A stretch of DNA of 64,000 nt. It comes from Gammaproteobacteria bacterium (GTDB lineage: Bacteria; Pseudomonadota; Gammaproteobacteria; GCA-001735895). The notes under the pieces are model-generated. The model worked only from the letters and a program-made list of their open reading frames with translations. It was not told the origin of the DNA and made no database searches. Location of the stretch: the NCBI GenBank assembly GCA_050298595.1, contig JBNKUM010000085.1:192001-256000 (forward strand), given 5' to 3'. Both the position numbers and the translations under genes were made by a program. This document shows, in pieces, positions 54,363 to 56,749 of the stretch. Position 1 is the first letter of the stretch. Every line of letters begins with the position of its first letter.

Positions 54363-54751
54363 AATTCCGCTGCGCTTATCGTCAATAGAATAGTAGGTGC
54401 CTGACATTCTCAGCCATAGTAATAGCTTCAAGTTGAGAGATTAACTTTTGTTACCCCTTGTTGATGAAATCGATCGGCAGCAGATTGTCATTCAGCACAA
54501 CTCCGGCCACGGTGCCGATCATGGCGACAAAACTGTTTAGTATTCAAACTTTTGGGGCAATTAACTAACTCAGACTTTACAACCTGCCTTACAGATAGCG
54601 GTCATTCAAGAAATTAGTGTGTACGGACGCTGTCGACCCGAACCTGCCATTCCTTACAGGTCGTAGGGATCGCTAGATCCTTGGCGATACCAGTTGTTCA
54701 TAAAGCTTCAATAAATAATTATGGTGTCCCCAGAATACCGTGCCGATCGTC

Positions 54752-55033
54752 CTATGAATGCCTTTGTTTGGCATGCTTTCTCTTACGTGCTGGCTTTCTA
54801 AACTCTGAAACCGGAAACTTTTCTTTTGGGGCCTTAATTTCATCTTGCTCTTCTAATGGATTTCCAATGTCATTGTGGAACCTGTAACCATACTCGAATA
54901 AGGCCTTCAGTTTTTCCCATGCTTTTATATCTTTTTCTTTCGGTGCTTTGAAAGCTGACCCTGCTTCATGCATAGCGGAGCCGCATTCAGGGCAATTGAA
55001 TTTATTTTGTACTTCTGTCCAGTTACAACGCAC
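54752..55033 (-). pseudogene. Probably 5'-truncated zinc-ribbon hypothetical protein (cassette-like)
   Basis: Single CPECG followed by FKAPK..DIKAW; no RBS; 5' end runs into a degenerate attC. Confidence 0.5.
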
Positions 55034-55094
55034 ATTTTGGAGGGAAACCGATGCGTAGCGTAGTTTTTTCCTACTGGCTGTACTTGTTAAATGC
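55027..55094 (-). repeat. Degenerate attC site
   Basis: Minus strand: GCATTTAAC-AAGTA-CAGCCAGT then stem AGGAAAAAAC...GGTTTCCCT, 17 bp after the stop of ORF 55112-55477; L' box does not pair. Confidence 0.55.
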
Positions 55095-55111
55095 CTTTTT
55101 CTTTACTATTT

Positions 55112-55477
55112 TCATTCTCTGAACTCATGAACCAATTTTGTGACAATAAATTTTTTAACCTCTGGAGCAACATCACCAAAATTTTTATATATGAGATACA
55201 TGAGTCTAGGCAAATTAGGCAAACCATCAGTAATAAGCAATGGTGTTCCAGGGTGCTTTCCTGGCTTTGCGTCATCATCAACTCCATGATGACTAAACCC
55301 AGACTCTATTTTCCATGTTAACGCCTTCTCTGCATTCGGTTTGTCATAGGTAATTTGATAACAAACTATCTGATCGTCACTATTTACCCAAACGTAGACA
55401 TCCATTTTTGACCCAGAAAACCATCGTCGTTTAGGTTGATCGGATTTTTGAGATGTCTTTAAAATTTCCCGTAACAC
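55112..55477 (-). CDS. Hypothetical protein in a gene cassette
   Basis: AT-rich ORF (RRWFS, YDKP..EKALTW) bounded by GTTAAGTGC (55492-55484) and GCATTTAAC (55094-55086). Confidence 0.75.
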   Translation of the reverse strand: MLREILKTSQKSDQPKRRWFSGSKMDVYVWVNSDDQIVCYQITYDKPNAEKALTWKIESGFSHHGVDDDAKPGKHPGTPLLITDGLPNLPRLMYLIYKNFGDVAPEVKKFIVTKLVHEFRE

Positions 55478-55492
55478 TTGTTAGCACTTAAC

Positions 55493-55669
55493 CAGGGTGC
55501 AGAAAAATTAAAACATTAAAAGTAACATGGTTTACGACGCGCTTCTACACTTATAGAACTGTACTTTTAGAGCATAGCCGCAAGAATATTTACTTATGAT
55601 CGCATTTTGTTCAGAATTATTAATCATTTATTACCCTTCAAAATATCACCTTAATTTTTCTACAGCCTG
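55493..55669. mobile_element. 177-bp MITE with 19-bp terminal inverted repeats and 3-bp target duplication
   Basis: CAGGGTGCAGAAAAATTAA ... TTAATTTTTCTACAGCCTG (17/19 match); AAC at 55490-55492 and 55670-55672. Confidence 0.85.
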
Positions 55670-55734
55670 AACGCCGAGCTCAGCGGGAAAATCGACCACA
55701 GGGAGATTTTATCCGTTGCAGCACATTGTTAGGC
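55670..55734 (-). repeat. attC site
   Basis: Minus strand: GCCTAAC-AATGT-GCTGCAAC-(GGATAAAATC..GATTTTCCC)-GCTGAGC-TCGGC-GTT; L''/L' pair with an extrahelical G; begins 6 bp after the stop codon. Confidence 0.88.
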
Positions 55735-55740
55735 TTTGGG

Positions 55741-56283
55741 CTATTGCCAATATTGATATAGCCTCCATTGGCCCCCGCATGAACCATTTCTACCAAATTC
55801 ACTTACGGTAATCTTTCCATAGGATGATTTCTCTTCATTATTTAGAATAATTTCTCCGCTTACATCTAGATAAAAATCTTCTTTTCCATATTCAGTTTGT
55901 TTTAAAACGTAGACCCTATAATCTTTAAATGAGAAGCCTCCCTTTGCATTTAATGGCTCTTCAATTTCAACTATTTGCCCAGCCAGCAGGATATAACCAT
56001 AAGCTTTTCTATTTATGACCCAGAAGGTTGCTTTTAAACGGTGACCGCTTGAAGTTCTCTTTTTACTATTTAGATCTGTACACTTTAGTCGAAACTCCTC
56101 AAAAGGTTGAAAAGCAATTTCAAAATGTACCTCACCACCCCATTTACCGTTTAGTGAATTAAGAAATTTATCATCTAGTGTTTCTTTAATTGATGTATTT
56201 ACTGAGCTTATGGAACAAGCTGAATGGAATAATGTAATCAAAAAAATGTAGATAAATTTCATAGTTCTGTAAGTCACGTCCAT
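55741..56283 (-). CDS. Hypothetical putative lipoprotein in a gene cassette
   Basis: MKFIYIFLITLFHSAC lipobox-like N-terminus; bounded by GTTAGGCTT (56300-56292) and its complement AAGCCTAAC. Confidence 0.75.
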   Translation of the reverse strand: MDVTYRTMKFIYIFLITLFHSACSISSVNTSIKETLDDKFLNSLNGKWGGEVHFEIAFQPFEEFRLKCTDLNSKKRTSSGHRLKATFWVINRKAYGYILLAGQIVEIEEPLNAKGGFSFKDYRVYVLKQTEYGKEDFYLDVSGEIILNNEEKSSYGKITVSEFGRNGSCGGQWRLYQYWQ

Positions 56284-56388
56284 TATTTTTCAAGCCTAAC
56301 AGCTTGATTATGTGACACGCACAAATATTGACTTATGTTGCATTATATTCTCACTCATAGGTAAATTAATCAATGACCGCTCCTGGCA

Positions 56389-56558
56389 CAGGCTATATGA
56401 AAACTCGCTTCAATTTGATGACACCAAAAACATTTCCCACTACGGGATAATTTTTCAGGATTATTTAGAACTCAATTACCACAAATCACACAAAATTGAT
56501 CCTATATAAGCCCGCATATTCCACTTGAAAAATTGGAAAAAAGTTTTCACACAGCCTG
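56389..56558. mobile_element. 170-bp MITE with 17-bp terminal inverted repeats and 4-bp target duplication
   Basis: CAGGCTATATGAAAACT ... AGTTTTCACACAGCCTG (15/17 match); GGCA at 56385-56388 and 56559-56562. Confidence 0.85.
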
Positions 56559-56749
56559 GGCACATTCCAGCCTATTGCACCGCACAATACGAATGTCTGC
56601 TTTCAGGAAAAGGAGCCACTCAGCTTCCCATATTTCGGAAAATGATCGCTAACAAACTGCGCCATCAAATATTTACCCTATTATCCCCCTCATAAAAATA
56701 TTTCTACTATACTCAGCAATCGACAATTCAAATCAGAGGCACGGAAGTT

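Follow-up and report, generated by a model that had tools for sequence, protein, structure and literature searches.

The window analyzed here is a 64,000-nucleotide stretch of a gammaproteobacterial genome (GenBank assembly GCA_050298595.1, contig JBNKUM010000085.1, positions 192,001 to 256,000), and it includes a short run of integron gene cassettes in which three neighboring open reading frames (ORFs) all lie on the minus strand. Read along that strand, an upstream cassette ORF (56283-55741) is followed by its attC recombination site, a 177-bp miniature inverted-repeat transposable element (MITE), a downstream cassette ORF (55477-55112), a weaker attC-like site (55092-55027), and a third ORF (55033-54752), and the MITE stands between the downstream cassette ORF and the attC that precedes it. 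The terminal inverted repeats (TIRs) of this MITE are those of a clade of insertion sequences (IS) of the IS1182 family, and it is very likely that the element inserted at the GTT of the attC R′ box, in the one orientation used by its relatives, leaving GTT on both sides.

The structure that the original prediction had drawn from the letters alone is confirmed by the sequence and by a repeat search: two TIR arms of 19 nt each, 89% complementary (17/19) and 139 nt apart, bound a 177-bp element with AAC/AAC flanks, or GTT on the cassette strand. In minus-strand order, the site consists of GCCTAAC (R″), an imperfect palindrome, GGC GTT (55672-55670), the MITE, and GTTAAGT (55492-55486). The CAGGCTGTAG end of the element (55669 side, written in cassette orientation) abuts the attC stem, and the CAGGGTGCAG end (55493 side) abuts the remainder of R′. 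Both the proposed insertion on the R′ GTT, with GTT on either side, and the resulting change of R′ from GTTAAGT to GTTCAGG were borne out. The attC fits the definition of such a site, with R″ GCCTAAC, an original R′ of GTTAAGT, and the stop codon of a co-oriented ORF 6 nt before R″, and it shares 83-89% identity with MITE-free attCs on five other contigs of the genus. A paralogous attC without the MITE (G074:C148, 89% identical) reads GCTTAAC followed directly by GCTGCGCTCAGCGGG, with a single AAC. At 177 bp, the element is short and has no capacity to encode a transposase, and no Rfam family was matched at E ≤ 1 in positions 54600-56700 of the window. Two other readings of the interior were rejected on inspection by eye: a 31-codon frame is broken in 2 of the 11 known copies, and an ORF-less cassette with its own attC would need an internal AAC with a complement at the 3′ end, which is absent, the sole long pairing being that between the TIRs.

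Table 1. Coordinates of the features discussed (positions are those of the window unless a contig is given; G000 is the genome to which the window belongs).
Feature	Location	Strand	Details
MITE, non-coding, AT-rich, 177 bp	55493..55669	-	From sequence and inverted-repeat search
TIR arm adjoining downstream cassette	55493..55511	.	17/19 complementary to the other arm
TIR arm adjoining attC	55651..55669	.	With 55650, 20/20 identical to IS right end G000:C93:635-654
GTT (AAC on plus strand), downstream copy of duplicated triplet	55490..55492	-	First 3 bases of original R′ GTTAAGT
GTT (AAC on plus strand), upstream copy of duplicated triplet	55670..55672	-	R′ crossover triplet left on attC stem
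attC of upstream cassette, 65 nt	55670..55734	-	R″ GCCTAAC 55734-55728, imperfect hairpin, GGC GTT
Upstream cassette ORF, 180 aa	55741..56283	-	No Pfam family; preceded by GTTAGGC 56300-56294
Downstream cassette ORF, 121 aa from GTG	55112..55477	-	In-frame ATG at 55424; no Pfam family
Probable second attC	55027..55092	-	ATTTAAC ... GC GTT, then GTAA; read by eye
Autonomous partner IS, 1810 bp	G000:C93:635-2444		Bounded by CAGGCTGTAGAAAAAT.. ends

The 177-bp unit is a real MITE, a non-autonomous transposon bounded by TIRs. A search of 79 genomes of the family, which as sampled also make up the whole order, recovered 11 copies in 4 genomes at 78-91% identity, with six in G073, two and a 40-nt fragment in G075, one truncated copy in G072, and two in the genome of the window, where the second copy (C101:119536-119711) is 78% identical. 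The interiors of the 11 copies are conserved and align well; the upstream attCs and the downstream sequences differ. A pattern made from the 19-nt TIR (≤2 mismatches) gave 10, 15, 8, and 3 matches across four genomes of the genus, compared with 0 for its reversed control, and since the pattern recurs in this way and the whole element repeats, its terminal structure is not due to chance. Identification as a MITE, as first claimed, is thus upheld by the 11 copies in 4 of 79 genomes, by ends held in common with an IS, and by the unrelated flanks. In public sequencing run X3, read depth over the MITE is 191-454 compared with ~19-20 beside it, a figure that sums other copies and organisms and is a sign of multi-copy sequence only. 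Further TIR-like matches on contigs C28, C62 (at 17186), and C106 were rejected as elements, as they lie within coding sequence, apparently of the same genes in relatives.

The flanks of the copies point to a common target. Perfect AAC/AAC flanks are present in 7 of the 11 copies, and the other four comprise one with CAC/AAC, one that is ambiguous by one base, one degenerate copy (78% identity, flanks GGT/ATT in contig orientation), and one truncated copy. Ten copies retain the attC-side end, and in every one it is the same CAGGCTGTAG end that faces the attC-type flank. These flanks start with AACGCC, AACACC, or AACGTT, or with ACCACC in the degenerate copy, and about 8 of the 10 form a 55-90-nt imperfect palindrome ending in a GTTRRRY-like box (five were folded; those of G073:C59 and G073:C5 are ambiguous). 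The opposite end of the MITE faces YTAAC.

An autonomous partner of the MITE lies on contig C93 of the same genome (Table 1). The ends of this IS are identical to those of the MITE over 20/20 and 16/16 nt, and its interior is unrelated. On the cassette strand, CATATAAC, a 66-nt palindrome, and GGC GTT precede it, GTTATAT and then the ATG of the next cassette ORF follow, and it therefore also sits between an attC ending in GTT and a GTTRRRY box. Read through one TAA, its transposase scores 279.5 bits on model NF033551 (cut-off 270), the two pieces separately scoring 201 and 65.6 bits, and it carries the Pfam domains DUF772, DDE_Tnp_1, and DDE_Tnp_1_6; an intact 517-aa homolog in public metagenome data is 98% identical. 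Members of the IS1182 family measure ~1.3-1.95 kb and have TIRs and short or variable duplications, and the length of 1810 bp falls in this size range. Judged by its transposase sequence, the partner is an IS1182-family IS, in agreement with the original comparison of the MITE ends with those of IS1182/IS5-type elements. Two solo fragments of the right end of this IS are also present in the genome, at C93:136-258 (123 bp, 94%) and C15:26688-26736 (49 bp, 88%), and both end in CAGCCTG/GTTA on the cassette strand. The fragment on C93 occupies the expected attC place of the preceding cassette ORF (623-268), which suggests that a deletion associated with the IS took out an attC and joined two cassettes.

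Transposases of the same clade, 42-73% identical, were found in eight other genomes of the order with the same placement, with GTT before 9/9 readable left ends, GTTA after 7/7 readable right ends, and an RYYYAAC-type box upstream in 7/9 cases; in the remaining two, the flank is too short or is interrupted by a group II intron. A 39%-identical IS of Pseudoalteromonas piscicida (NZ_CP074588.1) also has the same GTT placement. A scan of named Gammaproteobacteria, using an alignment of 11 clade transposases as the query and one genome per species, recovered 80 loci with transposases 42-75% identical (best segment). Hosts include Marinobacter (many), Halomonas/Billgrantia/Vreelandella, Microbulbifer, Marinimicrobium, Zhongshania, Pseudohongiella, Granulosicoccus, Thiodiazotropha, Rheinheimera, Aliiglaciecola, and others. 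GTT stands at the left junction of 73 of the 75 readable loci, at the right junction of 72 of 73, and at both junctions of 67 of 69. The first GTT is preceded by GGC in 43/68 loci and the second is followed by A (GTTA) in 65/72, and the IS themselves are 1671-2030 bp long (median ~1815; 69 loci).

Upstream of these junctions, the flanks are palindromic in the manner of attC. When the 25 nt after the distal AAC were paired with the 25 nt before GTT, arm duplexes of -10 kcal/mol or lower were obtained in 36 of 61 flanks compared with 59 of 1000 random GTT sites of the window's own genome, and the distal box reads TAAC in 28 of the 36 strongly palindromic flanks; 13 of the 61 are weaker than -8 kcal/mol. 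The transposase and the longest flanking ORFs are co-directional in 43/47 upstream and 48/58 downstream flanks. From the direction of the ORFs and the upstream palindrome, it follows that the site is the 3′ (R′) end of an attC and that the IS lies in sense. On these junction sequences, the elements form an attC-R′-specific, sense-oriented IS1182 clade with MITE derivatives, and the original suggestion that an element of this kind targets attC cores is sustained by the GTT/GTT junctions and the attC-type palindromes upstream of them. A second IS1182 element in the window's own genome shares only 23% identity with the attC clade and differs from it in its ends (CAGGSTGTGTGAAAAC); it uses a precise site in another repeat with a TGCC duplication, and attC homing is therefore a property of the clade and not of the family.

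Clade members with slightly different tips behave in the same way. In genome G320, five 158-159-bp MITEs and two 1.76-1.79-kb IS, all GAGG-ended, are distributed over two cassette arrays, each after an attC and GTT, and two GAGG-type MITEs are present in the window's own genome (C62:1989-2154 and C108:1334-1500). The latter two carry TGTGGATAA ~17 nt from the left end, which equals the DnaA-box consensus and may be due to chance or be a host-factor site. Tandem insertions, in which a right end and a single GTT are followed by another left end, are found in Marinobacter nauticus CP085245.1 (L125) and at two further loci (L183 and L149), and they imply that the GTT beside an inserted element was hit again. 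Group II intron 3′ ends (RF00029) adjoin two elements: on G073:C59, one lies ~30 nt upstream of a clade IS in the same attC (L037:1325-1400, 67.6 bits), and on G072:C139, one abuts a MITE copy whose attC-side end is gone (L013:1666-1741, 52 bits). Both intron ends are co-directional with the cassettes, whereas group IIC-attC introns are described as antisense. Among 72,556 plasmid records, only 3 held a relative of the transposase (E ≤ 1e-40), and none of these was in a resistance plasmid.

Given the structure, copies, flanks, orientation, transposase family, and breadth of the clade, we infer that the insertions are catalyzed by the transposase with a 3-bp stagger. A DDE transposase, supplied in trans by an autonomous copy, would bind the 16-20-nt ends and join them to a 3-bp staggered cut at GTT, directly 3′ of the attC stem (consensus GGC/GTT/A), and subsequent repair would duplicate the GTT. 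The MITE, which holds the ends only, would be moved in trans. Any effect of such an insertion on recombination by the integron integrase, IntI, is likewise a matter of prediction. After insertion, the upstream attC keeps its stem and GTT and gains an R′-like GTT(C/G)AGGC, and in a computed fold the first bases of the MITE (CAGGC) allow GTT-C-AGGC to pair with R″ GCCTAAC with one bulged base. The idea that the element fixes cassettes in place accordingly finds no support, given the retained stem and GTT and the R′-like box that CAGGC re-creates. A further idea, that the element provides an AT-rich promoter to the downstream cassette, is not supported either, as a scan found no promoter-like site inside the MITE on either strand and one outside it, on the plus strand, compared with 1.6 expected in shuffled sequence. 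Placed in a spot free of genes, the MITE becomes the 5′ portion of the downstream cassette, with which it could travel.

A bolder and rather doubtful extension is that the clade is a dedicated cassette parasite that exploits both recombination systems, the transposase and IntI. If this were true, the (C/G)AGGC ends would rebuild an R′-like core (GTT-N-AGGC), the upstream attC would stay recombinogenic, and IntI could excise and re-insert the element plus the downstream cassette as one cassette, spreading IS and MITEs horizontally. IntI, alone or on the folded attC, would then possibly also deliver a transposase-made intermediate to G/TT, which would explain the single-base precision, the choice of R′ and not R″, and the sense polarity.

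Several observations weigh against transposition of the MITE into the R′ GTT. The case is built on sequence comparison and no transposition was observed, and the window attC is thermodynamically weak, with a fold of -9.1 kcal/mol (z -1.0). No empty allele of this very site was found in the 13 other genomes of the genus, none of which had the same two cassettes as flank this MITE, and no joint across the MITE site was present in contigs of public runs X3, X5, X6, and X7, contigs being assemblies that drop rare variants. The original prediction had regarded a single-copy element with no empty-site allele as the sign of its own failure; of this, only the lack of an empty allele was borne out, the element being multi-copy, with flanks in which attC is strongly enriched. 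The cognate transposase on C93 carries an in-frame TAA in the sole cognate IS copy of the genome, only 46-48%-identical GAGG-type transposases were seen in G073 with its six MITE copies, and no cognate transposase was detected at E ≤ 1e-40 in G075 with its two. Because one TIR has two mismatches, the sole cognate IS is stopped, and no empty allele was seen, this MITE copy may now be immobile or inactive. The palindrome tests were home-made, and three other scores failed to discriminate or had controls contaminated with cassette arrays, the arm-duplex comparison with random GTT sites being the one retained.

The association with integrons at the level of whole genomes must be read with similar care. 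The junction motif, GTT followed by (C/G)AGGCTGTAG(A/G)AAA (≤1 mismatch), occurs in 84 of 401 genomes across the class, compared with ~20 matches in all for the reversed control. IntI is present in 48/84 motif-positive versus 102/317 motif-negative genomes (Fisher p = 4e-5) and, for the exact motif, in 16/22 versus 134/379 genomes (p = 1e-3), p-values that overstate the enrichment as kin are not independent; the tallies include the unpublished genomes G219, G373, G385, and G117. No IntI match was found in 36 of the 84 motif-positive genomes; many genomes are incomplete, and some of the one-mismatch matches are due to chance.

The presence of GTT on both sides at G/TT, the sense orientation, and the restriction to attC would look exactly the same in sequence after insertion catalyzed by IntI, in which the element, or a circle made by the transposase, is integrated at G/TT like a cassette and the duplicated GTT is a normal cassette boundary. 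Every cassette is bounded by GTT...GTT, the insertion falls exactly at the crossover triplet and in sense, the motif is enriched in IntI-bearing genomes, and the IS tip (C/G)AGGC after GTT resembles an R′ half-site, AGGC plus one base, that pairs with R″ GCCTAAC. This explanation is nevertheless improbable. The element has no attC of its own, as its flush TIRs lie between GTT and GTT and not between AAC and GTT, which leaves no R″/R′ box possible in it. Long intact DDE transposase frames have been kept across 42-75% divergence, the 23%-identical IS1182 element is equally precise with a 4-bp duplication and no integron involved, and 6 of the 22 exact-motif genomes have no IntI match.

Still less probable is a loose preference for GTT or AT-rich DNA, with the attC association marking no more than where insertions are tolerated. 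Sites of this kind are gene-free and numerous, and a few flanks are weakly or not palindromic (the 13 of 61 noted above). Each genome, however, contains tens of thousands of GTT triplets, and still 67 of 69 elements stand at GTT in one orientation, with GGC before it in 43/68 and A after it in 65/72. Palindromic arms are ~10-fold enriched relative to GTT sites drawn at random, and tolerance by itself leaves the precision to a single base and the fixed polarity unexplained. The notion that the 177 bp are immobile, as a conserved leader or a piece of the downstream cassette, or as an unusually long attC with a structural inverted repeat, would suit the constant position between attC and ORF start and the well-conserved interior, but it is largely refuted and the least probable of all, given 11 copies with differing upstream attCs and downstream sequences, paralogous attCs (83-89%) with one AAC and no element, ends common to transposase-bearing IS, flanks of GTT/GTT and not the AAC/GTT of an attC, and no matching Rfam family.

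No IntI match was found on the contig of the window (C85), and the window is for this reason called a small attC cluster without integrase; IntI genes of the same genome lie on C89, C75, and C99, that on C99 being broken, with a fragment on C101. The probable second attC folds no better than shuffled sequences (z -0.14), and sequences that match 55040-55098 at 83-88% are present on some dozen other contigs of the genus. The third cassette-like ORF (54752-55033, minus strand, 93 aa) has a weak match to zf-Mss51 of 22.9 bits, below the cut-off of 27, and no attC was recognized downstream of it. A home-made attC finder, run on the whole genome, missed even the window attC and was dropped. A MAFFT alignment of 14 attC sites was misaligned, and RNAalifold on a nine-site attC alignment returned no structure, with the 3′ arms one column out of register.

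Upstream of the same cassettes, the window holds two further repeats. A second MITE of ~170 bp (56389-56558, minus strand) has ends CAGGCTGTGTGAAAAC and GTTTTCATATAGCCTG and flanks TGCC/TGCC, with ~20 copies in the genome and additional ones in G073. The parent element, a 1.69-kb IS of the IS1182 family (C64:12057-13742 and C67), is the one noted above as only 23% identical to the attC clade, and its insertions, in both orientations, likewise lie at this TGCC of the same repeat. The other is a 94-bp high-copy repeat (56296-56389, minus strand; AGGAGCGGTCATTGATTAATTT...AATCAAGCT) that ends directly at GTTAGGC and is followed by an ORF start within 10-40 nt in most of its 11 copies in the genome. 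Read depth over this repeat in run X3 is 880-1325 compared with ~20 beside it, and the repeat does not form a hairpin (z -0.7). Possible roles are those of a promoter/leader unit or of an unusual recombination site at cassette starts.

The clade occurs in many marine and saline Gammaproteobacteria, and its recognition has practical consequences for annotation, as inserts of 160-180 bp and 1.8 kb will be mis-called as cassettes or spacers and merge cassettes. The elements also pose the question whether IntI recombination is blocked by such inserts, tolerates them, or carries them along, and nature provides in them a system in which the reading of a recombination hairpin by a DDE transposase can be studied. 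The literature searched contains no report of IS1182-type elements or MITEs targeting attC, a preference that may nonetheless already stand in ISfinder or TnPedia. In a survey of plant-associated cassette amplicons, 49% of transposases are assigned to the 'IS5 family' with no target given (PMC11089894), and these might include elements of the kind described here.

Integron-associated MITEs, such as the 439-bp MITEs of Acinetobacter and IMUs, are short non-autonomous TIR elements. Unlike the MITE described here, they flank whole integrons and mobilize composites and do not enter attC cores. The IS1111-attC elements have subterminal repeats and are not known to have a TIR-plus-duplication structure. 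This group of the IS110/IS1111 family (ISPa21, ISPst6, and ISUnCu1) is a monophyletic subgroup of fixed-orientation attC specialists (PMC3001079; PMC11089894), its members enter attC close to the 5′ end, in antisense relative to the cassettes (PMC3001079), and their DEDD transposase is reported to be guided by a seekRNA, or bridge RNA (PMC11187229). The present clade resembles them in being IS that specifically target attC in a fixed orientation, but its transposase is of the DDE IS1182 type, its TIRs are flush and bordered by GTT at either end, and it uses the 3′ R′ core in sense. Group IIC-attC introns, which employ a ribozyme and a reverse transcriptase, are described in the same source as entering the bottom strand near the attC 5′ end, antisense (PMC3001079). 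They are likewise attC-specialized and share arrays with the clade, as the RF00029 matches adjoining a clade IS and a MITE indicate, whereas no intron match is present in positions 54600-56700 of the window.

Within the IS1182 family, IS1272 is described as targeting stem-loops, which it replaces with no duplication and no sequence specificity, and palindrome targeting by the family is cited there to Siguier et al. (PMC5678879). The attC clade shares with IS1272 the transposase family and a target made of an inverted repeat or stem-loop, but its insertions, at one foot of a single class of hairpin, leave the stem in place and duplicate GTT. An experimentally trapped IS1182 member made a 4-bp duplication (PMC3281130), and with the TGCC duplication in the window's own genome this indicates that short duplications are usual among IS1182 elements.

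The closest analogy in logic is a subgroup of the IS1202 family (ISAjo2-like), which is reported to target XerCD dif/pdif sites in one orientation and to insert 5 bp from the sequence bound by XerC (PMC10132070; bioRxiv 10.1101/2022.12.17.520857). Both groups are TIR-bounded IS that take one orientation and a fixed place at a tyrosine-recombinase site, but the elements described here belong to another IS family, enter the attC of IntI and not the dif of Xer, and sit on the crossover triplet itself. They would thus represent, beside IS1202 and dif, a further case of transposons homing to tyrosine-recombinase sites and, beside IS1111-attC elements and group IIC-attC introns, a third and unrelated class of attC colonizers, made up of DDE/TIR transposons and their MITEs that occupy the crossover triplet on the 3′ side and in sense.

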